From Candidatus Liptonbacteria bacterium (GTDB lineage Bacteria > Patescibacteriota > Minisyncoccia > UBA6257 > JACOXY01), in the NCBI GenBank assembly GCA_016182095.1, contig JACOXY010000010.1, positions 334 through 64,333 of the forward strand: a DNA stretch of 64,000 nucleotides. The letters run 5' to 3'. Positions 2,173-62,091 of this stretch are shown here, in pieces. Within the stretch, counting starts at the first letter, position 1, and each line of letters begins with the position of its first letter. The notes beneath the pieces are model-generated. The model made no database searches. It saw only the letters and a program-made list of their open reading frames with translations, and was not told the DNA's origin. Both the position numbers and the translations under genes were made by a program.

Positions 2173-2199
2173 GCAAGAGGCGCCATTGGCGCCTCTTGC
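2173..2199 (-). terminator. Perfect 12-bp stem / 3-nt loop hairpin (GCAAGAGGCGCC ATT GGCGCCTCTTGC). An A/T-rich tract follows on the minus strand. Likely terminator for the minus-strand four-helix-bundle gene.
   Basis: Inverted repeat read directly in the sequence. Confidence 0.45.
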
Positions 2200-2231
2200 A
2201 GGGTATGGGGTATAGGGTTTGGGGTATAGTT

Positions 2232-2594
2232 TTAGGGCTTAGGGCATAGCTTTATCAAAAGTTTACGCAACATTTTCATAACTTCTATGGTTATAGATTC
2301 AATGCGCTTAAAATCCGGATCACTTAAATATCTTAACTTCTCCGAAACAATAAGTTGCGTTTCCAGCTCGGTAGCAGATGCTAATGCTATCCTTAAAAAT
2401 TGAATGTATTCTTTTAAGTGACCGCGGTTGTAACCTTCAGCTATATTTGATGGAATGGCAACGGCGGCACGTCTCATTTGCGAAGTAATGCCATATATCT
2501 CTTCACGCGGAAAACTTTTAGTAAGTTTGTAAATTTCTATTACAAGATCAACACTTCTTGACCATACTCTAAGTTCTTTATAGGAGCTAAGCAT
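2232..2594 (-). CDS. Four-helix-bundle protein (TIGR02436 / '23S rRNA-intervening-sequence protein' family). True start likely MLSSYKELRVW. The N-terminal extension of the track ORF is encoded by the G-rich repeat.
   Basis: Motifs YKELRVWSRS...IYKLTKSFPREE...QMRRAAVAIPSNIAEG...ELETQLI are typical of this family. Confidence 0.7.
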   Translation of the reverse strand: MLSSYKELRVWSRSVDLVIEIYKLTKSFPREEIYGITSQMRRAAVAIPSNIAEGYNRGHLKEYIQFLRIALASATELETQLIVSEKLRYLSDPDFKRIESITIEVMKMLRKLLIKLCPKP

Positions 2595-2637
2595 ATTATT
2601 TTTTACTATACCCCATACCCCACACCCCAAACCCAGC

Positions 2638-3735
2638 TTACTTTTTCATCTTCAATAATATTCTTTTCTCTTCCGGTTTAAGCGAGGAGATTATAAACCC
2701 ATATTCTTTGCCAAGCTCTATTGCGGCCTTCATTTCGTCGGTGCCGCCGAATTCAGAAACGTGTATTAGGCCCTGAATATCGCCCGTTAAATCAATAAAC
2801 GCTCCATAGGGGTTGAATTTTTTAACCGTTCCTTTTACTTCTTCGCCCTCTTTAAACCTCTCGGCAACCGTCGCCCAGGGATCCGGCTGGAGCGCCTTAA
2901 GAGATAAAAACACCCTTCCTTCCTTTATATCAATAATCTTTACCTTATAAACTTCATCAACCTTGACTACTTCTTTGGGATTATCTATTAAGCGATGAGC
3001 CAATTCCGAAATATGGATAAGCCCCTCCACCTCCGGATCATCAATAAATTTTACGAAAGCGCCAAAGTCGGCGACTCCGGAAACCATGCCCGTGACCACC
3101 TGGCCAACTTCGTATTTCTTTAGAAGCTCCTTAACGTTAGCGTCGGTTATCTCGCGCTCGGAAATAATAAGTTTCTGCGTTCTGGGGTTCGCGTCAATCA
3201 CTTTTACCTTTAACTCCTCACCGACAAATTTCTTCAGCTCTTTTAATATACCCTCTTTTTGATTCTGATTGGCTTCGGCTGAAATTCTCGGATAGTGTTC
3301 GTTAGAGAGCTGGGAAACCGGTAAAAAAGCCTTAAGTTCGTTAATCAAAGCCATCAAGCCGCCGCTATTTGCCCCTGAAATTTTCACGGCAATAACCTCC
3401 CCGGATTTTGCAAGTTCGCGCACCGTATCCCAAACTTTTTCCTGCTCGGCGGCGCCAAGAGATAACTCCACATAACCGCCTTCGCCGTCCAAGGCAATAA
3501 TTTTGGCACTAACTTTGTCTCCGACTTTCAAGTTCTTGAGAACATCCTTGGCGTTAAGATATTCCAGCCCGAAAACCATACCAGTGCCGAAAGCGCCCAA
3601 ATCAAAATAGGCCTCGCGCGGAGCTTTCTCTATCAAAACGGCCTCTGTGAGTTCGCCTTCACGAGGGAACTTCAATGAGCCGGCCTCACTCTTAATCATT
3701 TCAGCCAGAGTGGTTGTTTTATCGTTATTAGTCAT
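2638..3735 (-). CDS. rpsA: S1 RNA-binding domain protein (ribosomal protein S1-like, 4 S1 repeats).
   Basis: Repeated S1-domain signatures (GxV.G.V..I..FGAFV., EGLIHISE). Confidence 0.6.
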   Translation of the reverse strand: MTNNDKTTTLAEMIKSEAGSLKFPREGELTEAVLIEKAPREAYFDLGAFGTGMVFGLEYLNAKDVLKNLKVGDKVSAKIIALDGEGGYVELSLGAAEQEKVWDTVRELAKSGEVIAVKISGANSGGLMALINELKAFLPVSQLSNEHYPRISAEANQNQKEGILKELKKFVGEELKVKVIDANPRTQKLIISEREITDANVKELLKKYEVGQVVTGMVSGVADFGAFVKFIDDPEVEGLIHISELAHRLIDNPKEVVKVDEVYKVKIIDIKEGRVFLSLKALQPDPWATVAERFKEGEEVKGTVKKFNPYGAFIDLTGDIQGLIHVSEFGGTDEMKAAIELGKEYGFIISSLKPEEKRILLKMKK

Positions 3736-3840: not shown

Positions 3841-3962
3841 TTTTGCGCTACCATAGAGTAGCGTAACGTTATAGTCGTTATAGCGTTCAATTCGTTCTAA
3901 ACGACCCGCATATTGGGTGCCAACGGTTACAACGATTAGAACGTGTACAACGGTTAAACACG
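3841..3962. repeat. Phased (A/T)AACG(T/A)T motif array upstream of the MBL hydrolase gene. About 10 AACG/CGTT cores at ~10-bp spacing.
   Basis: taacgtt, tcgtta, agcgtt, ttcgtt, aaacga, caacgg, caacga, gaacgt, caacgg read in the sequence. Same motif class recurs at 23161-23246, 43135-43165, 43541-43600 and 59775-59815. Confidence 0.5.
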
Positions 3963-4523
3963 ATGGTCATAACTTATCACGACGAAACTTGTTTTAGAAT
4001 ACAAAGCGGCAATTTAAGTTTGGTGGTTGACCCGGTGAGCGAAAAGTTTAAATCCGATGTAACTATCAAAACCAATCTGGCGCTTCCTTATAATAAAACC
4101 GAAAAGGATTTGATCGTCGGGGCCGGAGAATATGAAATCAATGGCATTTCCATAAGAGGCACGCAGGCGAGCTACGACAAAAAGGCGGGGATTAAAACAA
4201 TTTTTGAAGTCGTCATGGAAAACATAGCTCTCGGTTTTTTTGGGAAAATTGACGCGAATCCCGAACCGGATCTGATTGAAAAACTGGGGAATTTGGAGAT
4301 AATTTTCCTGCCCGTCGGGAAAGGTTATTTGGATGAAAAGTCGGCGCTAAAAATAGTAAAACAGGTAAAGCCCAATATCGTAATTCCGTACCCCACAAAG
4401 GCAACAAAAGATTTTTTGGAAGAAATGGGCGGCAAGAGCGAAATTTCTGATAAATTAACCCTGAAAAAAAAGGATATTTTGGAGATGGGGGAGAAGATGC
4501 GGGCGGTATGCTTAAAAAGTTAA
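3963..4523 (+). CDS. Small MBL-fold metal-dependent hydrolase.
   Basis: 186 aa. N-terminal MVITYHDETCFRI...SLVVDP pattern fits short MBL-fold hydrolases. Confidence 0.4.
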   Translation: MVITYHDETCFRIQSGNLSLVVDPVSEKFKSDVTIKTNLALPYNKTEKDLIVGAGEYEINGISIRGTQASYDKKAGIKTIFEVVMENIALGFFGKIDANPEPDLIEKLGNLEIIFLPVGKGYLDEKSALKIVKQVKPNIVIPYPTKATKDFLEEMGGKSEISDKLTLKKKDILEMGEKMRAVCLKS

Positions 4524-4546
4524 AAATTAAAATGTAAAAATCAAAA

Positions 4547-4672
4547 ATCCCTCACTCAAGAAGGAGTTTGGGTCGGTTCTGGAAATCGTAATATTAATTA
4601 CCAACAATAAATTATTAAGATAAAATGAATTTTGAGAAGAAGCGGAAAATGCTCCTTCTTGAGTGAGGGATT
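4547..4672. mobile_element. MITE-like element, family F1 copy 1. About 125 bp with 20-bp perfect terminal inverted repeats ATCCCTCACTCAAGAAGGAG.
   Basis: Terminal inverted repeats read directly. About 92% identical to the copy at 52903-53027. An inverted, more diverged copy lies at 44021-44144. Confidence 0.6.
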
Positions 4673-4694
4673 GATATTAAGTTTAACTTAGACA

Positions 4695-5052: not shown

Positions 5053-8000
5053 ATGAGGGAAAATAAAAATGAAAATAAAATAGTATCCAAAGCGGAACCA
5101 CGCGAAATAACCACTGAACTCAAGGAGTCTTATCTTGATTACGCGATGTCGGTCATAGTTTCGCGCGCCTTGCCGGATGTCCGCGATGGCTTGAAGCCGG
5201 TACACAGAAGAATTTTGTGGGCCATGTGGGACATGGGGCTTACGCATGGAGCTAAATTCAGAAAATCTGCGAATGTCGTTGGATCCGTCCTCGGCGCGTA
5301 TCATCCGCACGGCGACTCATCCGTGTATGACGCAATGGTGCGATTAGCGCAACCCTTTTCCATGCGCTACCCGCTAATCGAGGGGCAGGGTAACTGGGGA
5401 TGTTTTACCAAGGATACCGAAGTAAAACTTGCAGATGGGCGGAACTTGAGCTTTGGAAAACTCATTGAAGAAGATGCTCGAGGAAAAACCAACTATACAT
5501 ACACGGTCAATAGTTTAGGGTTAATATCGGTGGCAAAAATAGAAAAACCAAGAGTTACAAGAGGTGACGCCGAGCTTATTAGAGTTACACTTGATAATGG
5601 CATCGAGATAAAATGCACCCCAGACCATCGCTTTATGTTAAGAGATGGGAATTATAAAGAAGCTCAGTATTTAACGCCACAAGATTCATTAATGCCGCTT
5701 TATGAAAAGTTGTCCGAAAAAACTGATAGATTAAACATATCAAATTTGATTAGATATGAAATTAGAAATAACCACCGCGTTACTAAAATCGAAAAATTAT
5801 CAGAGAAAGAAGACGTTTACGATCTTACGGTCTCTGGTTCGCACAACTTTTCTTTGGGGGCGGGCATTTTCGTACACAACTCGGTCGACGGGGATTCTGC
5901 GGCGGCGATGCGCTATTGCGTTACGGGCGATACTTTAGTTGTTACGGAAAATGGCCTGCAAAAAATTAAAGACATGCCGGGTAAAACTGATAATTTTGAG
6001 CAGGACATAAATATTAAAATCCTTTCTAGGGAGAAAAAAATCCACAAAGCCAGCAAATGGTTTGATAGTGGAGAGCATCCTACTTTAAAAGTAACAACGA
6101 GCCGCGGCCATCAAATAGAAGGATCATATAATCATCCTTTGCTAACTTTAAATAAAAATGGGAGTGGAAAACCAACATTTCAATGGAAAACTCTTGAACA
6201 GCTTACTGCTGGCGACATAGCGGTTCTGGATCGTTCAAGCGATGTTTTGTGGCCGGAAAAAGAAGTTGCTTTAGATAAATTTTATCCAACTGGCCTGCAT
6301 AATAGAACTGAAAGAAAAAAAATGCCGGCGCGCCTTGATGAGAATCTAGCTTTTATAATCGGCGCCATTATAGCAGAGGGGACTACCAGCAGAAAGAAAA
6401 TTGAGTTTTGCAATAGCGACCTAGAATTTGTTGCTGAATTCGAAAAAAGGTGGGCAAAAGTTTTCCCAGACTGCAGAATTCATAAATTTATTAAACAGCC
6501 CTCATCTTATGGGAAGAAAGAATATTGTCGCTTAGAAATTCATTCTCTTTGTGTGGTTTCATTTTTACACAATCTCGGTCTCAATATCGCCACTTCAGCA
6601 TTTAAAACAATCCCGGAACCAATTTTGCAGTCCCCTAAAAATGTAGCGGCGAGTTTTATTAGGGCTTATTTTGAGGGAGACGGCTCAATATCAAACTCTG
6701 ACAAAATGATTGAGCTTAGTAGCTGTTCCATAAGTAAAAAACTAACTGATGAGCTACAGGTTTTGTTGTTAAAATTTGGCATTGCCGCCACCAAAAGGTT
6801 CGATTCTTACAGAAATAACCATAAATTATACATCCGTGGAAGAAAAAATTATTTAGTATTTGCTGAAAATATAGGATTTGTTTCTGCGCGCAAAAATAAT
6901 AGGTTAAAAAACGTTCTAGGACATTATTTAAAGTTTGCCGCCCCGACAGATTTTATTCCTTATCTAACTGGCTATGTAAGAACATTTGTTGCCATGCCAA
7001 GAAGCGCCGATAGGCAGTTTATTCTCAAAAATAACTTTGATCGGTATCATTATTTGGAGAAAAACGGGGGTAGGGTAGCGCTTGCGGTGCAAGCCACGAC
7101 TGGCTTAAATCTTGAACCCCTATTCAGATCTTTTCTCGGCAATAATTATCTTTTTGATCCTGTGGCCAGCATTGAAAAAACGGGGGTCCAAAAAGTTTAT
7201 TCAATCAGGGTGGATAGTGAATGTCATTCCTTTATTGCGAATGGTTTTATTAATCACAATACAGAGTGCCGCCTCTCTAAAATTGCCGAGGAACTTTTGG
7301 GAGACATAGAAAAAGAAACTGTGGAGTGGCAGCCAAACTATGATTCAAGCCGCGAGGAGCCGAAGGTTTTGCCGTCTAAATTTCCCAACTTGCTCGTGAA
7401 CGGCGGTATGGGTATAGCAGTCGGCATGGCGACAAGCATTCCTCCCCATAACTTGAGCGAAGTGGCGGATGCCGCGGTAAAACTTTTGGATCATCCCAAA
7501 ACCAGCATCTCCGAAATAATGGAGATAGTTAAAGGGCCCGACTTCCCAACCGGCGGGATAATTTATGACCGAAAAAACATAAATGAAGCTTATGCCCTAG
7601 GCCGCGGTTCAATAACCACGCGGGCGCTCGCTGAAATTTCCGAAAAAAAGAGCGGCCAATATGTGATCGTCATAACCGAAATTCCATATCAGGTTAATAA
7701 ATCGGAGTTGATAATCAAAATCGCCGAACTAATCCAGGAAAAAAGAATTGAGGGCGTGAGAGACGTGCGCGATGAATCCGATAAAGACGGCCTCCGAATA
7801 GTAATAGAGCTGAAGAGCGACGTCTCGCCGCAAAAAATCCTAAACCAGCTTTACAAAAACACAGATTTACAGAAAGACTTCCACCTTAATTTGATCGCGC
7901 TTCAAGATCGTGGAATTCAGCCCCAGCTTATGTCTTTGAAAGACATGCTGGAGCAGTTTATCGATCACCGCAAAGAAGTTGTGCGCCGCAGAGCGGAGTT

Positions 8001-9351
8001 TGACCTTAAAAAAGCCAAGGAAAGGGCGCATATTTTGGAGGGACTCGCTAAGGCGCTATCGGTTATTGATAAAATAATCGCCACCATCAAGAAGTCGGGC
8101 GACAAAGAAGAGGCGCATAAAAATTTAATCAAGAATTTCAAGCTTACCGACATACAAGCGACGGCTATCCTCGAAATGCGCCTGCAAACTTTGGCGGCCT
8201 TAGAAAGGCAAAAGATTGAGGACGAGCTAAAGGAAAAACTGAAATTAATAAAAGATTTGGAGATATTGCTTAAGAGCCCCGAAAAAATAAAGGGGGTTAT
8301 TAAGGACGAACTCCAAGAAATGCGGGAAAAATTCGGTGACGAAAGAAGAACCAAAGTAGTGTCAGGCGGGCTGAAGGAGTTCAAAGAAGAAGACCTGGTA
8401 CCGGAAGAAGAAACCGTGATAACCCTTTCCGCGGGCGGGTACATAAAGAGAAGCAATCCGGGAGATTTTAAGGTACAAAAGCGGGGCGGCAAAGGGATAA
8501 TAGGAGGCGATGTCGGTGAAGAAGATTTTGTGCGCCACTTTGTGAGCGCCGTAACTCATGACAACATTTTATTCTTTACCACGAGCGGCAAGGTTTTCCA
8601 AACTAAAGTTTATGAAATACCTGCGGCTTCAAGAACATCAAAGGGAAAGGCCATACATAACTTTTTAGAAATCCCCACCTCCGAATATGTAAGCGCTATT
8701 ATTGCATATCCATCCAACACGCAAAATCAAGAAACCGCGGCATCGGGCTTCCTTGTTATGGTCACCGAAGGCGGCGTTATCAAAAAAACCAAAATTGCCG
8801 ACTTTGAAAATGTCAGAAAAAGCGGCATTATCGCCATTAAATTAAGAAGCGGCGACAAACTCAAATGGGTGGGGTTATCTGAAGCCGGGAACGACATTCT
8901 TATCGCCACCATGAACGGCCAGGCGATCAGATTCAAAGAAAAAGATTTGCGCCCCATGGGGAGGGCGGCAAGCGGCGTTACCGCCATAAGGTTAAAAAAG
9001 GGCGATAAAGTAAATGCCATGGAAATAATTAGAGGAGGAAAAGAGACGCGAGAAACACAGCTCCTCGCGGTTATGGCTAACGGTTACGCCAAGCGCACCC
9101 CCTTAAAAGAATATAAGGTGCAAAGGCGGGGCGGCTCCGGGATTAAAACAGCCAAAATAACGGCAAAGACCGGCTCCATAGTGGCGGCAAGAGTTATAAC
9201 CGAGGAAGAAGAACTTCTGGCTCTTTCAACTAAGGGCCAGATAATCAAGACCTTAATCAAGGATGTGCGCATAGCCGGCCGCGCCACGCAAGGAGTTAGA
9301 ATTATGTCGCTTAAAGCCGGAGATAAAGTGGCGGGGATAGTGTGTCTGTAG
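5053..9351 (+). CDS. gyrA: DNA gyrase subunit A, interrupted by two inteins. Extein total is ~824 aa.
   Basis: GyrA motifs are all present: [37 protein letters not shown]|..|[12 protein letters not shown]|..|[13 protein letters not shown], and the C-terminal beta-pinwheel repeats. Confidence 0.9.
5401..5880 (+). other. Mini-intein (160 aa, no endonuclease domain). Inserted between GQGNWG and SVDGD. Starts with Cys, ends His-Asn, with Ser at +1.
   Basis: CFTKDTEV...GIFVHN|S. The flanking exteins reconstitute the conserved GyrA GN(F/W)G-S(V/I)DGD motif. Confidence 0.7.
5917..7260 (+). other. Intein (448 aa) with a LAGLIDADG homing-endonuclease domain, at the canonical GyrA intein site (AAMRY|C...HN|TE). 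It lies only 12 extein residues after intein 1.
   Basis: CVTGDTLV...FINHN|TECR. LAGLIDADG-like blocks [13 protein letters not shown] and [12 protein letters not shown]. Same insertion point as the mycobacterial GyrA intein. Confidence 0.75.
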
Positions 9352-9396
9352 AAACTGAAATTCAAAAATCAAAATGCAAAATGCAAAATTTAAGAT

Positions 9397-9431
9397 TGTT
9401 CGCCGAAGGCGAACTCCATAATTTTTGTTTT
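9397..9431 (+). terminator. gyrA terminator hairpin GTTCGCC GAAG GCGAAC followed by a T-rich tract.
   Basis: Stem-loop plus ttttgtttttg read in the sequence. Confidence 0.5.
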
Positions 9432-9446
9432 TGATATAATATACTT

Positions 9447-10805: not shown

Positions 10806-11699
10806 ATGAAAAAAACTTATCGCTTTAAATTAGCTCTTATTCTATTGGTTTTGGCAGTCATCCCAATTCTCGCAAACGCCCAATCCATCATAAATCCCGA
10901 CGAGTGTTCAGGAATTTTTGATTTCATCCCGGCCGATAAAGCCAGATACTGCACTCTGTGCGACGGACTGCAAGCGGTAAAAAATGGATTGCTACTGCTT
11001 TTGAAAATTGGTGTGGGGCTCGCCGTGATAATCATTGCTTACGGCGGAGTGCTTATTATGGTTTCGGGCGCAAGTCCCGGCAAATTTGAGCAAGGCAAAA
11101 AAGCGATTATTGGTTCCGTGGTTGGGGTCGCGATCGGCGCTATGGCATGGATCATCATCAATCAAATTTTCTTCATCTTTGTAACGCAAAGCGTAACTCT
11201 GCGTCCCTGGAACGATATCCCCTGTCCCCAAGAACCGCCGAGATTTGGAGCATCATTGGGAGGCACTGGCGGCCCTGGGGGCACTGGCGGCACAGGTGGA
11301 ACAGGCGGTACGGGCGGCACAGGAGTATCTGTAACTGACAACGCCAGAGTAAAAGCTCTATTAGACCCCAGTATTCGATATAACAATAATTCATGCCCAC
11401 CAACCTGTGTGGGGGGATTGCCACAAACCACCATAGATAAGTTAAACACGCTACAGGCGCAGTGCGGGTGCGTTGAAATTACCGGCGGCACAGAACCAGG
11501 CCACGCCTCTCATGGACCAGGCCTTGCTGTCGTTGATATTCGTTACAATCAAAGGGCAATTGATGGTTTGCGAAACATGGGCTACTCCGAAAGCAACTTT
11601 GGAACTGGCTACACCTGTGAACCGGCAGGAGGGAATACTGGCGGAACAAGGGTTCTGTGCAACAGCGGGCGCGCGGATAAAATGCATGTGGAGTTCTAG
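10806..11699 (+). CDS. VirB2/TrbC-like pilin paralog 1: signal peptide, hydrophobic helix pair, GGT-rich linker (GGTGGPGGTGGTGG...) and Cys-rich C-terminal domain.
   Basis: Signal peptide plus LLLLLKIGVGLAVIIIAYGGVLIMVSGASPGKFEQGKKAIIGSVVGVAIGAMAWIIINQIFFIF two-helix hairpin, typical of conjugative-pilin-type subunits. Confidence 0.45.
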   Translation: MKKTYRFKLALILLVLAVIPILANAQSIINPDECSGIFDFIPADKARYCTLCDGLQAVKNGLLLLLKIGVGLAVIIIAYGGVLIMVSGASPGKFEQGKKAIIGSVVGVAIGAMAWIIINQIFFIFVTQSVTLRPWNDIPCPQEPPRFGASLGGTGGPGGTGGTGGTGGTGGTGVSVTDNARVKALLDPSIRYNNNSCPPTCVGGLPQTTIDKLNTLQAQCGCVEITGGTEPGHASHGPGLAVVDIRYNQRAIDGLRNMGYSESNFGTGYTCEPAGGNTGGTRVLCNSGRADKMHVEF

Positions 11700-11975
11700 A
11701 ACCCATCTCAAAAGTATATTCAAGCCGCGTTCTTAGCAATTTTTCAGGTATCCGCAAGGCACGACGAGGAAGGTGTAGCCTATGCGCTACTCCGACGAGG
11801 AGTAACGAAGCGGAACCTGAAAAATTGCAAGAACCCATTCGGGATACGGCCAATTTCTGTCTGATACTTTGTCGCTTCGGGCTTAATGTATCTAAAGATA
11901 CACCTTCGCCCTTGCTCCTCGTACAGACAGAAATTGGCCTGTATCGCGGCCGAAGATACTTTTGAGATGGGTTCT
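11698..11975. mobile_element. 278-bp non-coding element with 20-bp perfect terminal inverted repeats (AGAACCCATCTCAAAAGTAT) and two nested internal inverted repeats. MITE-like or structured RNA, lying between pilin genes 1 and 2.
   Basis: Terminal inverted repeats at 11698-11717 and 11956-11975. Inner inverted repeats ggatacggccaatttctgtctg / cagacagaaattggcctgtatc and cgacgaggaaggtgta / tacaccttcgcccttgctcctcg. Confidence 0.55.
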
Positions 11976-11994
11976 AATTTGATACAATATAAAA

Positions 11995-12513: not shown

Positions 12514-12575
12514 TTGCTGCTGCAAGTATCATGTATCAGGTATCAAGTGAGTGAAATTAATTTTAATTTACTCAT

Positions 12576-12604
12576 TGTACATGACACATGACACATGACA
12601 CATG
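12576..12604 (+). repeat. Tandem heptanucleotide repeat (CATGACA)x4 overlapping the start codon of pilin paralog 3.
   Basis: catgacacatgacacatgacacatgaca read directly. Every unit carries an ATG and the 7-nt unit shifts frame, so copy-number change would move the start codon (candidate slipped-strand phase switch). Confidence 0.6.
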
Positions 12605-12928
12605 ACACAATTCAAATATCTCGCTCAATCCGCCGTTTCTCCTACCAATGACTTATCGGGAATCCCAATCGTGAACCTTGACTCCGATGATGTGTACAGA
12701 ATTTTGATAGATTTCGCGAATTGGATGTTTATCGTTTTTGTGCTCGTGTTTGTAGTGCTGGTTCTTTTCGCCGCTTTTAGATTCCTTACCGCTTCCGGAA
12801 ATGAAAGTAAAATTAAAGATGCTTATAAGGCATTTTGGTTTGCCATAGTGGCGCTAGTTATAGCTCTACTTGCGACAGGAATAGTAGCGTTAGTAAACCA
12901 GCTTATTTATGGGAGTAGGGGGGGGTAG
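12602..12928 (+). CDS. VirB2/TrbC-like pilin paralog 3 (108 aa). The gene ends in a G8 homopolymer.
   Basis: Helix pair MFIVFVLVFVVLVLFAAFRFLTASGNESKIKDAYKAFWFAIVALVIALLATGIVALV. The 3' end (tat ggg agt agg ggg ggg tag) contains the poly-G run at about 12918-12925. Confidence 0.45.
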   Translation: MTQFKYLAQSAVSPTNDLSGIPIVNLDSDDVYRILIDFANWMFIVFVLVFVVLVLFAAFRFLTASGNESKIKDAYKAFWFAIVALVIALLATGIVALVNQLIYGSRGG

Positions 12929-22816: not shown

Positions 22817-23164
22817 ATGATACCTCAAGAAAAATTAAATCAGTTAAAGCAAAAACTGGAGGGGGAGAAAGAGACAATTGAGCAGGAAATAAAGGAGCTG
22901 GAAAAAGCTCCGGATTTTGGCGATTCTGCCGCCGATCCGGAAGCCGAAGAAGTGGACGAGGCGGAAGAGTGGAGCACTAATAACGCCTTGTCTCAAAATC
23001 TTAAAGTGCGCCTCTTGGAAATCAACAGCGCTCTTTCTAAAATTATAAACGGCGGAGAATATGGGATTTGCGAAAAATGCGGCAAGGAAATGGAAATAGG
23101 ACTCTTAGAAATTGACCCCGAATCAAGACTTTGCAAGGAATGTAAGCTCAACACCAAGTTATAA
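22817..23164 (+). CDS. DksA/TraR-family C4 zinc-finger protein.
   Basis: Coiled-coil N-terminus plus C-terminal CEKCGKEM...CKEC zinc finger. Confidence 0.55.
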   Translation: MIPQEKLNQLKQKLEGEKETIEQEIKELEKAPDFGDSAADPEAEEVDEAEEWSTNNALSQNLKVRLLEINSALSKIINGGEYGICEKCGKEMEIGLLEIDPESRLCKECKLNTKL

Positions 23165-23246
23165 CGATCTAATCGTTCTAGTCGTTCTATCGCTGTTTAT
23201 ATTTGCGATTATAACGTTTATAACGCTATAACGGCTACAACGCACC

Positions 23247-24779: not shown

Positions 24780-25091
24780 ACTTAAGCCCTCTACGAGGAC
24801 GGTCCTCGTAGAGAATGGTTTATTTCACAAAAGGGTTCGGGAACCACTTTGTGAAATAGTTGAAAACGCGTTGCGAGGTAAAATTAAAAATTTCAAGGCT
24901 TGCCGACAAAGCTGTATCCGGTGCGATACAGCGAGGAGACATAACACAGAAATTTTTAATTTTAACCGCAACCCAAAGAGATATGCCAATTTAAAAGAAT
25001 CGCGGTGTTGCCCCTCGTCGTCGTATCACTGGGGATACGCCGTCCTCGTCACGTCTTGCGCTTCTTTTAAATTGGCTATATCGCGCCTCAA

Positions 25092-26099
25092 CTATTTCAC
25101 AAAGGGGTTCCTAGCTCCCTCAACTTCAAAATGCAAATGACATCCCGTGCTACCATGCACATTGCCGGTATTCCCGATTTTGGCAACCTGCGCGCCTTTC
25201 TCAATAAAATCACCCATCTGAACCAGATTTTCTTTGGTGTGAGCATAGGTTGTCTTAGTGCCGTTATTATGTTCTAAAACCACAAAGCCGCCATATCCGG
25301 AGTTCCATTTATCAGGACTACCAACTTTTAGAACCAAGCCGTCGGCTGATGCATAGACAGGGGTGCCGCAAACATTCGCTATATCCACGGCATTCGCTTG
25401 ATGCAAAACTCCCCAGTTCCAGCTATTTAAGAGTGCCGGAAAACCGAAAAATCCAACAATGGAAGGCAACTGCGGCAAAGAGCTTATGATAGAAGCCAGA
25501 GTTCTTTGGGGCTTACCGCTCGGGATAATGAGTGACGTGCCAGCTTTTAGTTCCAGGGAATTTTCAATCTTATTCGCCGATTTTATTTTTGAAACATCAA
25601 CCCCAAAGACAGAAGCAACTGACGCAAGCGTGTCGCCATCTTTAGTTTTATAAAGCACTCCGGAAACCGGCAAAATAATAAGTTCTTCATCAATACTTAA
25701 AACACCGCGGCCGATTTTAGGATTGGCCCAAAGAATAGTATTAACGGATATGCCAAATTGAGCTGCTATTTTGGAAAGATTGTCGCCAGACCGAACCCGA
25801 TATACCATAAGACCATTTTGCACCTCGGTTCCCCCGCCAAAAACAGAGCCCCTGTTATAGACAGAGGCGCTCGCCTCTGAAATTAGCCCACGCCCCCCTT
25901 CGCCCCCCAACCCCATTCCCTCGGTCGGAGCGCCTGGATTCTGGAGAGCATACAAAACCACTGATTCATCCCCAGAATTAATGTAGAAAGCGCCATCCGC
26001 AGGACCGCCAAAAACGCCGTTTCGCAAAATATCGGCCGAGGCAGAATTAAGAACCGCGTTCAGAGTTAAAACCGCAAAAACAAGAACGCTTACAAACAA
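25092..26099 (-). CDS. Secreted LysM-domain + M23 family metallopeptidase.
   Basis: LysM (YRVRSGDNLSKIAAQFGISV, YKTKDGDTLASVASVFGVDV) and M23 motifs (HNNGTKTTYAH, GNTGNVHGSTGCHLHFE). Confidence 0.8.
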   Translation of the reverse strand: MFVSVLVFAVLTLNAVLNSASADILRNGVFGGPADGAFYINSGDESVVLYALQNPGAPTEGMGLGGEGGRGLISEASASVYNRGSVFGGGTEVQNGLMVYRVRSGDNLSKIAAQFGISVNTILWANPKIGRGVLSIDEELIILPVSGVLYKTKDGDTLASVASVFGVDVSKIKSANKIENSLELKAGTSLIIPSGKPQRTLASIISSLPQLPSIVGFFGFPALLNSWNWGVLHQANAVDIANVCGTPVYASADGLVLKVGSPDKWNSGYGGFVVLEHNNGTKTTYAHTKENLVQMGDFIEKGAQVAKIGNTGNVHGSTGCHLHFEVEGARNPFVK

Positions 26100-29960: not shown

Positions 29961-30785
29961 GTGTTTTTGTGTTTTAATACTTTTATGAGCAAGCGCCTCG
30001 GCCAACATTTTTTAATAAACAAAAGGATCTTGCAAAAAATTTCCACCTCTCTGGAAATTAAAGATAACGACACAATTATTGAGATCGGGCCGGGACACGG
30101 TGAATTAACAGAAGAAATATTAAAAATTAAAGATAAAAAATCAAAAATTATTGTAATTGAAAAAGACAAAGATCTGGCAGGGGCTCTGCGTCTGAAATAT
30201 CAAAACAACAAAAACATTGAAATTATTGAGGGCGACGCTTTAAAAGTTCTTCCTGAAATTACCATACCCCACACCCCGGACCCTAAACCCTACAAGCTTG
30301 CGGGAAACATCCCCTATTATATAACCGGGCGGCTTTTCCGCATTATTGGCGAAATAGAGCAAAAACCGCAAATCTGCGTATTCACAATACAAAAAGAGGT
30401 TGCGGAGCGCGTGGCCGCAAAGCCACCACGCATGAATTTGCTTGCCGCCTCTCTTCAGGTATGGGCCGACGTTAAAATAATTGAAACAGTGCCGGCAAGA
30501 TACTTTAATCCACCGCCGAAAGTTGATTCCGCAGTTATTAAGCTTATTACTAAACCCCCAGAACTTATAAACTTAAAAACTTATGAACTTACAAACCACT
30601 ACAAAATCCTGCGGATTTTATTCAGACAACCCAGAAAGACGATTTTAAACAATTTAAGCGATGGATTGGGCCTAAAAAAATCAGAAATAGTTGCAAAACT
30701 TAAAAAAATTGGCACAAAACCAACCGATCGCCCGCAGAATCTATCTATGGAAGATATGGTGAAGCTCTCTGTTTGCTTTCAATAA
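29961..30785 (+). CDS. rsmA: 16S rRNA (adenine1518/1519-N6)-dimethyltransferase KsgA/RsmA. Contains an ~11-residue insertion (TIPHTPDPKPY) encoded by a copy of the C-rich telomere-like repeat.
   Basis: GQHFLIN, IIEIGPGHGELT, GNIPYYITG motifs. The insertion DNA accataccccacaccccggaccctaaaccctac closely matches the repeat at 2607-2636. Confidence 0.8.
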   Translation: MFLCFNTFMSKRLGQHFLINKRILQKISTSLEIKDNDTIIEIGPGHGELTEEILKIKDKKSKIIVIEKDKDLAGALRLKYQNNKNIEIIEGDALKVLPEITIPHTPDPKPYKLAGNIPYYITGRLFRIIGEIEQKPQICVFTIQKEVAERVAAKPPRMNLLAASLQVWADVKIIETVPARYFNPPPKVDSAVIKLITKPPELINLKTYELTNHYKILRILFRQPRKTILNNLSDGLGLKKSEIVAKLKKIGTKPTDRPQNLSMEDMVKLSVCFQ

Positions 30786-35569: not shown

Positions 35570-36784
35570 ATGCCCCATAAATTAATAGACATACCGCAAG
35601 AAATTAGGGTTTGGTTAGCGTCAGAGGCCGCCACACAGCACATCGTGTTTATAAATAAACAGTTTGCTTTTGTTGAGGAAAAAATGAGAATAATACCTAT
35701 TTTGTTATTTCAGCTGACATCAAAAGAAATCCAACCGCAAGATTTTGTAAGTGAACTAAGCGACTGGTTAGATGTGAGCTCAGAATCCGCAAGGACACTC
35801 GCAAGAGAAATTGAAGAAAAAATTTTAGAGCCGATCAAGAGACCTCTTTTAAACTGGGGCATTGATATAAGCCTGATAAAAATAGGGGCTTTGAGTGAAG
35901 AGCTACGCCCAATCATTGCGCCCCCGCCTCCTTTGCCCCCCGACTTGCCCCCCGAAGCCTCGGCGAAGGGGGGAGCTTTAGCGCAGGAGGGCGCCACCAC
36001 ACCCAAAATATCAATATTCCCTTCTGCGAGTGAACCCCAAAAATCCTACACCCCTCCGCCGCCACCCGCCCCGGGGAAAAGTTTTGAGCCGTCATTTATG
36101 GGTGGCGCTCCGCGCACAGAAGATCTTGGCGCAAAAAAAATAAGGGCAATTGGCGGCACCCATGGCATTGGGGAAGAAAGTGAGCGCGAGGATAAGTCCT
36201 TCGGCGAAGCTCAGGACAAGCCCTTTATTATTCATAAGGAACCCTCGTTAGAGCCGGTTTCTAAAGATTTGCCATACGCAATCCCGTCCATCCCAAGCTC
36301 GCAAAACGAACAAAAAAACATACCAAGGCCGGATTTAGTGGCGCGCGCAAGAGAAGGGCAAACTCCGTGGCAGGATTTGATTCCCAAAAAAGAGCACTCC
36401 TCTCACGCTAAGGAAAAGCCCTTCGGCGAAGCTCGGGGCAAGCCCGTAGTCCTACCGCCCAAGCCAGTCGGAAAGAATTTAAGAGAACAAACACCACACA
36501 ATAATCCGGATTTAGCGGAACAAGCAAAACCAAGAAAAGAGGTGAGGCTCCCGGAGTCATCTTTTAAGATCGTGCATTATGACGAAGAAGAGCTGGCCGC
36601 AAAAGAGAAATTTAAAGCTATACCAAAACCAAGCGCCCCCCTAGACGGAACGTTAAGGGGCGAGCATTCTGTAAAACAGAATGTTTTAGCCAAGCCAGCC
36701 GATCTGCCAATGTTGCCCGATAAAGATGTTCATAAAAATAAACCCGGGCCCAAAGTTAAGGGGAATATGGTAGACCTTAGGTAA
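35570..36784 (+). CDS. Pro-rich protein with internal KPFGEA(Q/R)(D/G)KP repeats. No TM.
   Basis: PPPPLPPDLPPE and PPPPPAPG tracts. DNA-level ~30-nt repeat near 36193-36240 and 36417-36460. Confidence 0.3.
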   Translation: MPHKLIDIPQEIRVWLASEAATQHIVFINKQFAFVEEKMRIIPILLFQLTSKEIQPQDFVSELSDWLDVSSESARTLAREIEEKILEPIKRPLLNWGIDISLIKIGALSEELRPIIAPPPPLPPDLPPEASAKGGALAQEGATTPKISIFPSASEPQKSYTPPPPPAPGKSFEPSFMGGAPRTEDLGAKKIRAIGGTHGIGEESEREDKSFGEAQDKPFIIHKEPSLEPVSKDLPYAIPSIPSSQNEQKNIPRPDLVARAREGQTPWQDLIPKKEHSSHAKEKPFGEARGKPVVLPPKPVGKNLREQTPHNNPDLAEQAKPRKEVRLPESSFKIVHYDEEELAAKEKFKAIPKPSAPLDGTLRGEHSVKQNVLAKPADLPMLPDKDVHKNKPGPKVKGNMVDLR

Positions 36785-36796
36785 ATTTGCCTGTTG

Positions 36797-36902
36797 TGGG
36801 GTAAGGGTTAAGAAGCCGGTTTGGTAAAAGTTTTTGGGTTAAGTGTTTTTAAAGACCGACTACCAGAACCCCTAAACCAAACTGGCCTCCTAACCCTAAC
36901 CC
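36797..36902. repeat. Repeat family F3 copy B (inverted-repeat hairpin element). Right arm ends in (CCCTAA)-like telomere-type hexamers.
   Basis: GGGGTAAGGGTTAAGAAGCCGGTTTGGT ... ACCAAACTGGCCTCCTAACCCTAACCC read directly. Confidence 0.5.
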
Positions 36903-37611: not shown

Positions 37612-37755
37612 AAGTTCTAAATCCTAAACCCTAAATTCTAAACAAATTTAAAACCAAATTTTAAAGTTCAAACCAGTATTTATTTTGCTTTGTGTTTAGA
37701 GTTTAAAGTTTTAAGTTTGTTTAGAGTTTAGAAATTAGAATTTAGAGTTTAATTT
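37612..37755. repeat. Inverted array of telomere-like CCCTAAA / TTTAGAG heptamers forming a long imperfect hairpin between the prgI-like and virB4-like genes.
   Basis: ctaaatcctaaaccctaaattctaaac vs gtttagagtttagaaattagaatttagagttta read directly. Confidence 0.45.
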
Positions 37756-40136: not shown

Positions 40137-40178
40137 TATAAATCAAAAACCAAAAATAAAAAATTAAAATTATAGATT

Positions 40179-40214
40179 GTCCCCCACCGCTTTTTTAAAA
40201 AAGCGGTGGGGGAC
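40179..40214. terminator. Strong bidirectional terminator: GTCCCCCACCGCTTTTTT AAAAAAGCGGTGGGGGAC.
   Basis: Perfect 18-nt palindromic hairpin read directly. Confidence 0.7.
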
Positions 40215-40253
40215 TCCATCATATTTGATTTTTAATATTTAATTTTTAATTTA

Positions 40254-43137: not shown

Positions 43138-43151
43138 TCGTTATAGCCGTT

Positions 43152-43544
43152 CTAACGTTCAAACGTTGAAGCAGATAGAGACTTTTCTAATCCCAAAAGC
43201 TTGAAATATTCTTTTTCAAGAAGCGCTTGAAGCGTCTTAACTTCTTCTACTAAAACAAAGTTTTCCTGTAGAGCTATTTTTACACACCCAACACACTCTA
43301 CTGTTGAGCCAATAGATCTTCGTATATATAAAATGAAAGATTTTTTTGTTGGTTGAGCGCTTCCTTCAACAATATTTAACACAATAGAAGTTGCCGCCCT
43401 TTTTAGCTGATTTACTAACGAAAAAAGCTCGTCTTTGGGAAACTTTTTAGTCACTTTATAAATCTCTTTAACAATATCCATTGCTATTCGGTAAACTTCC
43501 AAATTTTCAAAGCGATAATTTTTAAATTTTTTTTCGCTTTCCAT
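43152..43544 (-). CDS. Four-helix-bundle protein (TIGR02436 family), second copy. Flanked on both sides by AACG-type phased repeats.
   Basis: YRFENLEVYRIAMDIVKEIYKVTKKFPKDE...SIVLNIVEG family pattern. Confidence 0.65.
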   Translation of the reverse strand: MESEKKFKNYRFENLEVYRIAMDIVKEIYKVTKKFPKDELFSLVNQLKRAATSIVLNIVEGSAQPTKKSFILYIRRSIGSTVECVGCVKIALQENFVLVEEVKTLQALLEKEYFKLLGLEKSLSASTFER

Positions 43545-43586
43545 GCGATTAGAACGCTTAGAACGTCATAACGACTATGGCGACCG

Positions 43587-44021
43587 CTACACCAGCGTTA
43601 TCACCACATGCCTCTCTTTTCCCATCCCCTCGCTCCCGGTTTTAACTTCCGGATGAACCGCGAGCGCGGTGTGTACCAGTCGCCGCTCGTAGGAATTCAT
43701 TGGCGGCAAAGCGATTGGTTCTTTGGTGGCTATAACTTTTTTGGCGGCCGCCCTGGCAAGCTCCGAAATAATGCGCTCTCTCTCCATCCGATAATTATTG
43801 ACGTCAACAAAAAACGGCGGCTCGTTCTCACGTTTGGCAATAAGCTGGGCCACAATATTAAAATCCTGCACAAAATGACCCAGGTTTTTCTCTATAACCG
43901 GGGTTAGCTCGTCACTAATAAAGATAGAAATCTTCCTTGCTGATTCGTCGCACTTTACGTCCGATTCTTCAAAGCCCATCTGCTCAACAATTTTTTTAAT
44001 TGTGTCGGGTACATTGGTCAT
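43587..44021 (-). CDS. jag: Jag/KhpB-like RNA-binding protein (KH + R3H domains).
   Basis: C-terminal R3H motif (MNSYERRLVHTAL). Position downstream of yidC in the conserved rpmH-rnpA-yidC-jag order. Confidence 0.7.
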   Translation of the reverse strand: MTNVPDTIKKIVEQMGFEESDVKCDESARKISIFISDELTPVIEKNLGHFVQDFNIVAQLIAKRENEPPFFVDVNNYRMERERIISELARAAAKKVIATKEPIALPPMNSYERRLVHTALAVHPEVKTGSEGMGKERHVVITLV

Positions 44022-44144
44022 CCCTCACTCAAGAAGGAGCATTTTCTGCTACTTCTTGTATTAATATTAATTTGATTTAATGTTCAGAATAATCATGGTA
44101 TAACGACTGTTTAATTGATGGCTCACACTCCTTCTTGAGTGAGG
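44021..44144. mobile_element. MITE family F1 copy 3 (inverted orientation, interior diverged) between jag and yidC.
   Basis: Same terminal inverted repeats TCCCTCACTCAAGAAGGAG / CTCCTTCTTGAGTGAGGGA. Interior begins cattttctgct, the reverse complement of the copy-1 interior end. Confidence 0.5.
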
Positions 44145-44157
44145 GATTTTTGATATT

Positions 44158-52866: not shown

Positions 52867-52902
52867 ATAAGCTTAATATAAAATATAAAAAATTAAATAT
52901 CA

Positions 52903-53027
52903 ATCCCTCACCCAAGAAGGAGTTTGGGTTGGTTCTAGAAATCGTAACATTAATTACCAACAATACATTATTAAGATAAAATTAATTTTGAGAAGAAGCA
53001 GAAAATGCTCCTTTTTGAGTGAGGGAT
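52903..53027. mobile_element. MITE family F1 copy 2 (about 92% identical to copy 1).
   Basis: Terminal inverted repeats ATCCCTCACCCAAGAAGGAG / CTCCTTTTTGAGTGAGGGAT and near-identical interior. Confidence 0.6.
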
Positions 53028-53079
53028 CAAATATAAACGGATTGATTTTTAATTTTAAGTATGCGACACTGTTAATATT

Positions 53080-59774: not shown

Positions 59775-59815
59775 TGCAATCGTTCTAAACGTTAGAACGT
59801 TAGAACGTTAGAACG
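59775..59815 (+). promoter_or_regulatory. Three tandem GTTAGAACG repeats (AACG-family) abutting a GCTATAATG -10 element upstream of the histidine-kinase gene.
   Basis: atcgttctaaacgttagaacgttagaacgttagaacgctataatg read directly. Confidence 0.5.
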
Positions 59816-61160: not shown

Positions 61161-61161
61161 G

Positions 61162-61278
61162 GTGTGGGGTAGGGTGAGTGGCCTGCCTGCGCAGGCAGAG
61201 GGTATAGTAAAAACCCCAAACCTCATTCGATCCTGAGGCTCTCAGAGCCGATGGCCTAAACCCCAAACCCTAAACCCC
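61162..61278. repeat. Telomere-like G-rich / C-rich repeat block (GGGTGTGGGGTAGGG ... CCCCAAACC ... CTAAACCCCAAACCCTAAACCCC) containing the 16-bp palindrome CTGCCTGCGCAGGCAG.
   Basis: Read directly. A related palindrome recurs at 62132-62145 on the other side of holA. Confidence 0.5.
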
Positions 61279-62091
61279 ATGATCATTACCCTCTACGGCC
61301 CCGATTCTTACCGGCGCAAAATAAAACTTGACTCTCTTGTTTCGGAATATCTGCAAAAACGCCAGTCTATGGCTTATGGGTTATTTGATTTAGCCGGTGA
61401 TGATTTAAGTTCTGGCGACGAGGAAGGCAACTTTCAAAAATTTGCAGAATTTTTAAAAACACCGAGTTTATTCCAGTCAGCAAAGCTTGCGGTGCTTAAA
61501 AACCCCTTTTCTTTTGAAAATCAAGCTAAATTAAAAAAAATTATGAAAGAGCTTATTTTGAGAGACGTTAATTTGATAATTTCCGACTCAACAAGGTCAA
61601 TAAAAAAAGAATTTGATTTTTTGAAAGAAAAACCAAACGTAAGCCAAATCTTTGATAAACTTTCTGGCCCGGAGCTTGCCCATTTTATAAAGGAAGCGGC
61701 GAAGGAAAAAGAAGTGGTGCTTCAGGATGGGGCGGTAAAATTTTTAGCCGCGGCCTTGCCAAGTGATAGCTGGGGGATAGTTAATGAACTTGCGAAGCTG
61801 AAATTTACCGGGATAAAAAAACCGATTGATGTAGCCGTTTTGAAAGCCGCTGGCCTTGTCCCAGAGGAAGATTTTTTTTCAATGGTTTCGGGCTGGTTAA
61901 GCAGGCCGATCCACAGCCGGCTTTTTTCTCTGGAGAAAATTTTTTATTTAAAAGAAGAAACGCCAAAAATTTTCAATATTCTGGCTTATCAGGACATTTC
62001 TAAATTGCGCAATTTTGCCGATTATGATGTCGCGATAAAATCCGGCAAATTGGATTATGATGAAGTGTTGTTGGATTTGGCTCTGCGCTAG
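61279..62091 (+). CDS. holA: DNA polymerase III delta subunit.
   Basis: IITLYGPDSYRRK start and delta-subunit pattern. 270 aa. Confidence 0.6.
   Translation: MIITLYGPDSYRRKIKLDSLVSEYLQKRQSMAYGLFDLAGDDLSSGDEEGNFQKFAEFLKTPSLFQSAKLAVLKNPFSFENQAKLKKIMKELILRDVNLIISDSTRSIKKEFDFLKEKPNVSQIFDKLSGPELAHFIKEAAKEKEVVLQDGAVKFLAAALPSDSWGIVNELAKLKFTGIKKPIDVAVLKAAGLVPEEDFFSMVSGWLSRPIHSRLFSLEKIFYLKEETPKIFNILAYQDISKLRNFADYDVAIKSGKLDYDEVLLDLALR

Follow-up and report, generated by a model that had tools for sequence, protein, structure and literature searches.

An intervening-sequence-type cassette outside ribosomal RNA, within a system of tandem-heptamer hairpins in a Liptonbacteria genome

Introduction

The closest described relatives of the element reported here are the intervening sequences (IVSs) of 23S rRNA, known from Coxiella, Leptospira and Brucella. 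The Coxiella IVS holds an open reading frame (ORF) of the S23p family in the loop of a 28-bp stem, within which RNase III cuts have been mapped; it also contains tandem GACAGAT heptamers, the copy number of which varies between strains (PMC4990558). Insertions in the 16S and 23S rRNA of bacteria of the candidate phyla radiation (CPR) likewise carry an S23p/23S_rRNA_IVP ORF. Our subject is an element of this build that is not in rRNA. We call it cassette 1. It lies at 2198–2637 of a 64,000-nt stretch (the window, to which all positions refer unless stated otherwise) of contig JACOXY010000010.1, from a Candidatus Liptonbacteria metagenome-assembled genome (Parcubacteria, CPR). The window's KsgA and four-helix-bundle protein match, with full identity, proteins from a 68-kb contig of a Liptonbacteria genome of this kind. 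A gene of the S23p family sits there between inverted arrays of tandem heptamers, directly downstream of a gene for an S1 RNA-binding-domain protein.

Other systems invite comparison. REP/REPIN sequences are short palindromic repeats dispersed in intergenic DNA, and the associated gene, RAYT, is flanked by inverted repeat copies. Cassette 1 is like them in that its gene is flanked by inverted copies of a dispersed repeat. It is unlike them in that its arms are tandem arrays with genome-specific units rather than a fixed palindrome of about 25 nt, that the enclosed protein is no transposase and that no covariation of protein and repeat was found. Rickettsia palindromic elements are selfish palindromes that form in-frame insertions in protein genes. 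They resemble the repeats of the window in that housekeeping proteins accommodate in-frame repeat DNA in their surface loops; the window's array in ksgA, however, adds no length, and it is a tandem array, not a palindrome.

Heptamer repeats have a literature of their own. The GGGAATC repeats of Xanthomonas, the GGGGAYT repeats of Nostoc and the short tandemly repeated repetitive (STRR) sequences of cyanobacteria resemble those described here in their period of 7, their run of at least three G and their roughly four units per array. They too are mostly intergenic near gene ends, frequently form convergent (inverted) pairs and differ in length and sequence from one close relative to another. The differences are that several non-G-rich families coexist in the window and that arrays stand in frame in a housekeeping gene there. 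The Xanthomonas and Nostoc work drew no link to PF05635 (23S_rRNA_IVP), the Pfam family of our cassette gene, although in a supplementary table of Rehm et al. a GGGAATC x4 array overlaps the start of XCC0516, whose protein was crystallised as 2GSC; the family goes unmentioned in the paper. The literature we searched held no description of a general link between PF05635 genes and heptamer arrays, the Coxiella IVS being the sole case found, and none of recurrent in-frame arrays at two loops of KsgA.

A cassette downstream of an S1-domain gene

Cassette 1 occupies the 3' untranslated region of the S1-domain gene (2638–3735, minus strand; Pfam S1, E 9e-35), the stop codon of which is at 2640–2638. 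Along the minus strand the order is S1 stop codon, G-rich arm, 10-nt spacer, four-helix-bundle gene, C-rich arm and terminator-like hairpin. The 5' arm (2605–2637, minus strand) begins immediately past the S1 stop codon; its sense strand, GCUGGGUUUGGGGUGUGGGGUAUGGGGUAUAGU, holds about four heptamers and pairs with 2198–2230. The 3' arm (2198–2250, minus strand) has about seven heptamers, which are C-rich when read on the sense strand and G-rich when read on the plus strand. As inverted repeats, 2198–2230 and 2605–2637 are 33 nt long and 85% complementary, with 374 nt between them. Beyond the 3' arm, at 2173–2199 on the minus strand, we read a GC hairpin, GCAAGAGGCGCC-AAU-GGCGCCUCUUGC, followed by AUUUAUUU. 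A TATAAT-like box comes after the hairpin and its U-rich tail (2199–2173). The hairpin is likely the intrinsic terminator of the S1–cassette transcript, judging by its sequence.

The sequence-only reading from which this work started had a G-rich copy at 2201–2250 and its C-rich inverse at 2607–2636 bracketing a four-helix-bundle gene and encoding its C-terminal residues. All of this held. The letters at 2200–2250 are a G-rich period-7 array of the GGGTATG type (AGGGTATGGGGTATAGGGTTTGGGGTATAGTTTTAGGGCTTAGGGCATAG) and those at 2607–2636 its C-rich inverse (TATACCCCATACCCCACACCCCAAACCCAG), and Tandem Repeats Finder gives both arms a period of 7 and 3.9 copies each. The enclosed gene (gene 1; 2232–2594, minus strand) encodes 120 residues, the last of which, with the stop codon (..LCPKP*), are written within the array at 2232–2250. 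It matches PF05635 over its full length (E 1e-38), TIGR02436 at 124 bits (cut-off 24), NF008911 at 150 bits (cut-off 137) and the crystal structure of Xanthomonas XCC0516 (Protein Data Bank [PDB] code: 2GSC) at E 2e-21. When the 456-nt transcript is folded, the arms pair in both the minimum free energy (MFE) and centroid structures, and the whole ORF is in the loop (z −5.4).

The window holds a second example. Cassette 2 (43139–43585, minus strand) is a TIGR02436 gene (43152–43544; 78 bits) between inverted arrays of period 8/9 with the unit CGTTMTAR (43139–43170 and 43545–43585), located between protein genes. Its protein is 37.5% identical in a tblastn comparison. The arms of cassette 2 also pair in MFE and centroid folds (z −4.0).

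The likeness to the 23S rRNA IVSs is close: the same ORF family in the loop of a stem of about 28–33 bp made by terminal inverted repeats, heptamer arms and an overall length of about 430–450 nt. What differs is the setting. Rfam finds no rRNA within the window, so cassette 1 is not in a 23S or 16S rRNA helix, and no known RNA family in Rfam matches the cassette; one cassette is in a 3' untranslated region and the other between protein genes. RNase III cleavage has been demonstrated for Coxiella; for the cassettes here it is predicted. The arms here also belong to families that are dispersed as gene-less hairpins. We class cassette 1 as an IVS-type cassette outside rRNA that belongs to a genome-wide set of hairpins built from tandem heptamers. 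Neither this build nor several further unit families (A-rich, GTATCAK, ACACCYG and CGTTMTAR) had been noticed by the sequence-only reading.

Gene 1 has another relative in Avd, the accessory protein of diversity-generating retroelements, which has a homologous, pentamer-forming four-helix-bundle fold. The Avd models, in contrast, fit poorly: PF22296 gives gene 1 20.9 bits (cut-off 40), and NF033474 has no match to gene 1 and scores 21.3 bits (cut-off 80) against the cassette 2 gene. Beside cassette 1, where the neighbours are the S1-domain gene and an ORF of no family, no reverse transcriptase was identified, template and variable repeats not having been searched for; the ORFs scanned beside all the flagged sites gave no reverse-transcriptase match. 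On the sub-cut-off Avd scores and the neighbouring genes we do not class the cassette as a diversity-generating retroelement.

Array, gene, array: the rule for the family

How general is this arrangement? We collected 80 metagenome loci encoding relatives of the protein (45–58% identity), 72 genes of which had enough flank. Each was scored by the strongest inverted repeat linking the upstream 150 nt with the sequence surrounding the stop codon, with mismatched-locus pairings as controls and the control 95th percentile as the threshold. The median score was 14.5 for the homologues and 7 for the controls. Fifty-nine of 72 four-helix-bundle homologues (82%) exceeded the threshold, against 21 of 202 other genes in those loci (10%). 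Among the 56 arms of at least 14 nt, 39 have a period of 7, 14 have a period of 8 and 3 have no period. The 5' arm typically ends 25 nt before the start codon and the 3' arm starts 2 nt after the stop (medians); in 24 of 59 cases the 3' arm overlaps the C-terminal end of the ORF, as it does in cassette 1. The array–gene–array anatomy is the rule for this gene family. So is the polarity of the arms, which is conserved: the upstream arm has positive GC skew, placing the G-rich arm first, in 42 of 45. The control genes with high scores come from genomes in which the spacers are all hairpins of a single unit family, G/T-rich arm first and C/A-rich arm second. Ordinary genes are located between such hairpins; four-helix-bundle genes are inside one.

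The same build is found well outside the CPR. A tblastn search of plasmids returned 30 records, nearly all cyanobacterial. Nostoc edaphicum has GGGAGTA x8 and TCCCTAC x5 as flanks, Anabaena sp. 90 has about 280 nt of AGGTGAC/AGGGAAC plus CTGTCAC x4, and a Pseudanabaena flank is AAAGCTA x17. A Geminocystis plasmid carries the same array–gene build, and a Gemmatirosa plasmid carries it with 8-mers. The gene of Azospirillum lipoferum, for its part, is within genuine 23S rRNA sequence, a true IVS with GGACAGA-type arms. For this gene family the IVS build seems to be the usual setting, whether within rRNA or away from it.

Two of the cyanobacterial cassettes stand between cas6 and cas4 of a type I-D CRISPR locus, on Anabaena sp. 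90 pANA02 (loci L165/L170) and Pseudanabaena pPg_01 (L162). Such a location may be what lies behind the statistical association, reported in the literature, between 23S_rRNA_IVP and CRISPR adaptation modules. The annotated N terminus of the Anabaena Cas4 reads through the CTGTCAC x4 arm.

Of all trinucleotides, TAG is the most frequent in the outward-facing cassette arms (193 occurrences, against 41 for TGA and 27 for TAA). It is present in 18 of 34 consensus arm units where 7.1 are expected; TGA and TAA are not enriched, and in Parcubacteria arrays generally TAG is not enriched either (19 vs 15.6). We did not adopt the idea that the heptamers supply stop codons in all three frames, given that TGA and TAA are not enriched and that TAG is enriched in cassette arms only.

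Gain and loss

Comparisons with relatives show that the cassette comes and goes as one block. A relative with an 89% identical S1 protein is without the cassette after the S1 gene, where it has a short ACGAAAT-type array and a terminator; another, at 75% identity, has a 45-nt spacer at the site. The cyanobacteria tell the same tale. Anabaena sp. 90 carries its array–gene–array block between cas6 and cas4, and a Dolichospermum plasmid that matches the flanks of the Anabaena site at 98.7% identity has neither array nor gene, with a different 245-nt element instead. On a Nostoc plasmid a 23-nt spacer takes the place of the block.

In other spacers for which the window and the 89% relative are in synteny, hairpins occupy matching positions but are made of different unit families. 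One hairpin is conserved: that at 12526–12609 (12514–12601 in the spacer comparison), with GTATCAK/ACATGAC heptamer arms, is retained in the relative (L173). This close relative (L173, which is GCA_964616565.1; L174; L001) is present together with the window organism in sample SRR12113383. The relative's contig stops about 140 nt past the S1 gene, beyond the short array and terminator.

Hairpins without a gene

Cassettes 1 and 2 are set in a landscape of similar arrays. We counted sixteen period-7 tracts across the window, where composition-preserving shuffles give 0.2 and the other periods from 4 to 15 give 0–4. The arrays are short (3–7 units), flanked by genes and inside the contig; of 19 tracts, at least 13 lie between genes or at their ends, in a window that is about 89% coding. 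Their usual layout is an array, a short centre and the complementary array. Unit families differ by locus and include GGGTATG/ATACCCC, AAATCAA/TTTAATT, GTATCAK/ACATGAC (four perfect copies), CTAAAYC/GTTTAGA and ACACCYG, with CGTTMTAR as an additional family of period 8/9. The array hairpins fold with z of −2.0 to −10, depending on region and strand. Twenty of the 31 intergenic spacers of 50–400 nt have a fold z of −3 or lower, and 12 of the 31 contain a tract of period 7 to 9. Across 618 kb of Parcubacteria DNA there are 75 period-7 tracts, against 3–17 at other periods and 34 at period 14, the double of 7. Gene-less array hairpins fill many intergenic spacers of this and related genomes, with unit families specific to the genome or the locus.

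Both families of cassette arm, the G family of cassette 1 and CGTTMTAR, also form gene-less hairpins in the window. The G family does so at 36797–36902, between the gene at 35570–36784 and a PrgI-family gene (folding energy −44 kcal/mol on the plus strand and −50 on the minus, z −4.1 and −4.8), and at 61161–61279, a composite hairpin. The latter's G arm begins at the stop codon of a histidine-kinase gene, and its C arm ends at the following start codon. CGTTMTAR makes a gene-less hairpin at 3855–3960, with more copies at 23160–23243 and 59781–59815. The sequence-only reading had listed 36861–36902, 37612–37755 and 61162–61278 as related blocks. The first and last are of the same unit family, each an arm or part of a long hairpin; the middle one is a different family, a gene-less hairpin at 37616–37751 with CTAAAYC/GTTTAGA arms of 39 nt that are 85% complementary (z −9.3).

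The A-rich family has a layout of its own at 40140–40252: an A-rich heptamer arm, a GC hairpin and a T-rich heptamer arm (z −7.3 and −10.2). Similar structures are at 9358–9440, 4515–4690 and 52875–53060. The GC hairpins at 9393–9420 and 40177–40215, which form the centres of two of these A-rich/T-rich array hairpins, have common flanks, AGATTGT-hairpin-ACTCCAT, and this likeness in sequence suggests a conserved core element.

Heptamer arrays in ksgA

The arrays also enter a conserved gene. At 30262–30294 (plus strand) a C-rich heptamer array of the cassette 1 unit family lies in frame in ksgA, in the loop before GNIPYY (site 2). It has an exact 15-mer, CATACCCCACACCCC, in common with the cassette arm at 2614–2628; allowing up to two mismatches, the pattern has four matches in place of an expected 0.02. 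An A-rich array, of period 7 by Tandem Repeats Finder, lies in frame at 30115–30148 (plus strand), after GPGHGELT (site 1). The sequence-only reading had taken the residues TIPHTPDPKPY at site 2 for an insertion. The array is there and in frame; the insertion is not. An alignment with 29 Parcubacteria orthologues shows the same loop length, and together with the PDB homologues this rules out an insertion in length. The loop of Bacillus subtilis is one residue longer than that of the window KsgA, and that of Coxiella four residues shorter. Of the broader proposal that the repeats are a mobile or recombinogenic class tolerated inside coding sequence, part survives: they are dispersed, they flank a cassette-like gene, they stand in frame in ksgA and the cassette comes and goes as a unit. 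What falls away is the notion that the ksgA array was inserted as extra length.

The best match to the window KsgA in a collection of species-representative genomes is only 59% identical. We took orthologous ksgA DNA from 80 Parcubacteria genomes and computed period statistics over 55 genes. Many orthologues have near-perfect heptamer arrays at these two locations, with units of their own (ATTCGAA x4, ACTCACA x4, GAATTCA, CTACAAG, GAATTAA x5). Strong period 7 is found at site 1 in 15 of 55 genes and at site 2 in 17 of 55 (about 30%), against 3.3% for other 50-nt blocks of those genes; periods 5, 6, 9 and 10 were seen at these sites in none of the 55. With identity among the orthologues at only about 50%, arrays that are near-perfect must have arisen recently, and the arrays are therefore being rewritten in place. 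In genomes with a periodic site 2, heptamer tracts are about five times more numerous in the rest of the locus (p 0.004–0.007). Sites 1 and 2 are mutually inverted complements in 7 of 59 genomes, against 3% of between-genome pairs. That the two sites are arms of one hairpin does not hold in the window's ksgA.

Other CPR KsgA orthologues have in-frame GC-rich palindromic insertions of 10–20 codons: after PPxMN in L051, L073, L011 and L078, at site 2 in L047 and L031, and also in L071. Those of L051 and L073 form a perfect stem of about 17 bp flanked by duplicated ATGAAT, which recalls Rickettsia palindromic elements.

How the cassette may work

The account we favour, with moderate confidence, is that of an IVS-type cassette outside rRNA: an S23p/TIGR02436 gene in the loop of a long hairpin with inverted tandem-heptamer arms, processed by RNase III, its arrays arising from slippage and conversion. 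The arms would pair in the S1–cassette transcript to give a double-stranded stem of about 30 bp. RNase III would cut this stem, as in the 23S rRNA IVSs, and separate the cassette RNA from the host message. We favour RNA pairing and RNase III because both have been shown experimentally for elements of identical build; for this cassette, processing is predicted by that analogy. Slippage by 7 bases, together with conversion from arm to arm and from array to array within one family, would create the arrays and keep them uniform. Family-wide homology would let cassettes move between array hairpins. The same process would overwrite protein loops of free sequence and set length, the two KsgA sites among them, and leave their length as it was.

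Several observations tell against this account. A motif search within the window found no RNase III gene, and there is no clear Shine–Dalgarno sequence upstream of the cassette ORF. Mismatches in the arms show no significant excess of G:U over A:C on the sense strand (82 vs 101). The more stable strand of the gene-less hairpins is often antisense to the flanking genes, with no consistent advantage to the sense strand, and by this result the complementarity of the arms could be maintained at the DNA level. Between them, the mismatch counts and the strand stabilities lend no support either way to selection on a sense-strand RNA stem. Cassette movement by recombination through the arms is suggested by presence/absence comparisons alone. 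Lastly, a role in RNA processing leaves the period of 7 and the recurrent targeting of two KsgA loops unexplained.

Might the arrays do nothing at all? They could be neutral by-products of 7-base replication slippage in unconstrained sequence, spacers and loose loops alike, without function or tie to any gene, an origin already put forward for bacterial heptamer simple-sequence repeats. Each genome does have many unit families, units turn over fast at orthologous spacers of close relatives, arrays in the variable KsgA loops leave length unchanged and the propensity to form arrays differs genome-wide among lineages; a polymerase footprint has been proposed earlier as the cause (PMC4692102). Slippage alone, however, does not produce inverted pairs. 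It also leaves unexplained the G-rich-first polarity (42 of 45), the association with one gene family (82% vs 10%) and the retention of a hairpin at one position while its units change, and we think this explanation unlikely. Doubtful too is a DNA-level mobile element in the manner of RAYT/REPIN, in which the inverted arrays would be terminal repeats recognised, in the form of folded or duplex DNA, by the pentameric four-helix-bundle protein; the protein would keep up or spread the array hairpins, and the gene-less hairpins would be non-autonomous copies. Speaking for it are the two paralogues, each flanked by inverted copies of its own family, which is also dispersed gene-less in the window, and the gain and loss of the cassette as a block. 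The lack of strand bias in arm mismatches fits as well, as do the toroidal pentamers formed by homologues, the binding of nucleic acid and reverse transcriptase by the related Avd, and the frequency of TAG in arm units (18 of 34 vs 7.1 expected). Yet no catalytic activity is known for the family, no target-site duplications were seen and arrays far exceed genes (75 vs one in 618 kb). Protein and unit hardly covary (Mantel r 0.10, p 0.04, a negligible effect size; protein distance 0.51 vs 0.53), and recognition by the protein of the variable part of its own unit is not supported. A grander version, on which we place little weight, would make S23p/TIGR02436 pentamers the cognate partners of tandem-heptamer hairpins across the bacteria, one selfish or domesticated system spanning IVSs, mRNA spacers, cas operons and gene-less copies. 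Were it true, it would account for the long-noted surplus of heptamers in bacterial genomes (the STRR of cyanobacteria and the G-repeats of Xanthomonas and Nostoc), for the patchiness of the paralogue families of the four-helix-bundle protein and for the repeated overwriting of permissive housekeeping loops such as those of KsgA.

Least probable of all, and in our view very unlikely, are telomere-like G-quadruplex (G4) repeats that act through G4 structure, in regulation or recombination, and insert into coding sequence. The sequence-only reading had likened the repeats to eukaryotic telomeres and called them G4-prone. The second point is sound for the G-rich family, which fits the formal pattern: the window has 5 formal G4 motifs where 0.57 are expected, and 3 of the 5 are in the cassette 1 family, at 2201–2224 (3' arm, plus strand), 2611–2634 (5' arm, minus strand) and 30267–30290 (ksgA site 2, minus strand). 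The related heptamers GGGAATC and GGGGAYT form G4 in vitro (PMC4692102), and some arms elsewhere are TTAGGG-like (AGGGATT, GGGTTTA). Most arrays of the window and its relatives, on the other hand, are not G-rich, which disposes of telomere likeness or G4 as a unifying property; predicted G4 potential is a property of one unit family, not of the array class, and would be a side effect of that family being G-rich. A complementary C-rich arm always stands opposite the G-rich one, so that duplex competes with G4; the ksgA array adds no length; and the genes scanned around the cassette include no reverse transcriptase. Nor are these telomeric repeats, being short, internal to the contig and flanked by genes rather than at chromosome ends. 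The telomere likeness is incidental: unrelated units (ATTCGAA, TAGCTTT, AGTGAAC and AAATCAA among them) make up other arrays of the window, arrays of 80 related genomes and those that flank 59 homologous genes. What the arrays share is a period of 7, sometimes 8, bases and inverted pairing.

Wider connections

Seen as an IVS-type cassette, the element links four things that have been described separately: the ORF-bearing IVSs of 23S rRNA, the paralogues annotated as "four helix bundle protein", the excess of heptamers that includes the G4 repeats of Xanthomonas and Nostoc, and the association with CRISPR adaptation. In many ultra-small CPR bacteria, a repeat-making process enters a conserved enzyme at the same two loops, in many lineages and at constant length. 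The KsgA arrays are an unusual case of non-coding repeat dynamics shaping protein sequence. On a practical note, arrays of this kind account for contig breaks and mis-called gene starts in such genomes.

Other features of the window

Positions 1–2000 of the window are 57% G+C, against about 43% elsewhere, and have long overlapping ORFs on both strands; the 324-residue ORF at 1146–2120 has no Pfam match. The 1432-residue ORF at 5053–9351 is GyrA with a LAGLIDADG-endonuclease intein, according to the Pfam annotation of syntenic genes in L173 and L176. An element of about 127 nt with 20-nt terminal inverted repeats (ATCCCTCACTCAAGAAGGAG) is present at 4546–4672, 44020–44147 and 52903–53027, one of the three being inverted; two of the copies have A-rich heptamer arrays alongside, and the repeat matches no Rfam family. 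Spacer elements of about 275 nt at 11697–11976 and 24840–25111 are bounded by near-perfect inverted repeats of 24–25 nt that are 96% complementary. L173 has a short repeat of its own in two spacer copies, in the reverse complement of its positions 9064–9181 and 3087–3328, which reads GTGTCATTCTGAGC...GAAGAATCTAGATCCTTCAC...CAGGATGAC.

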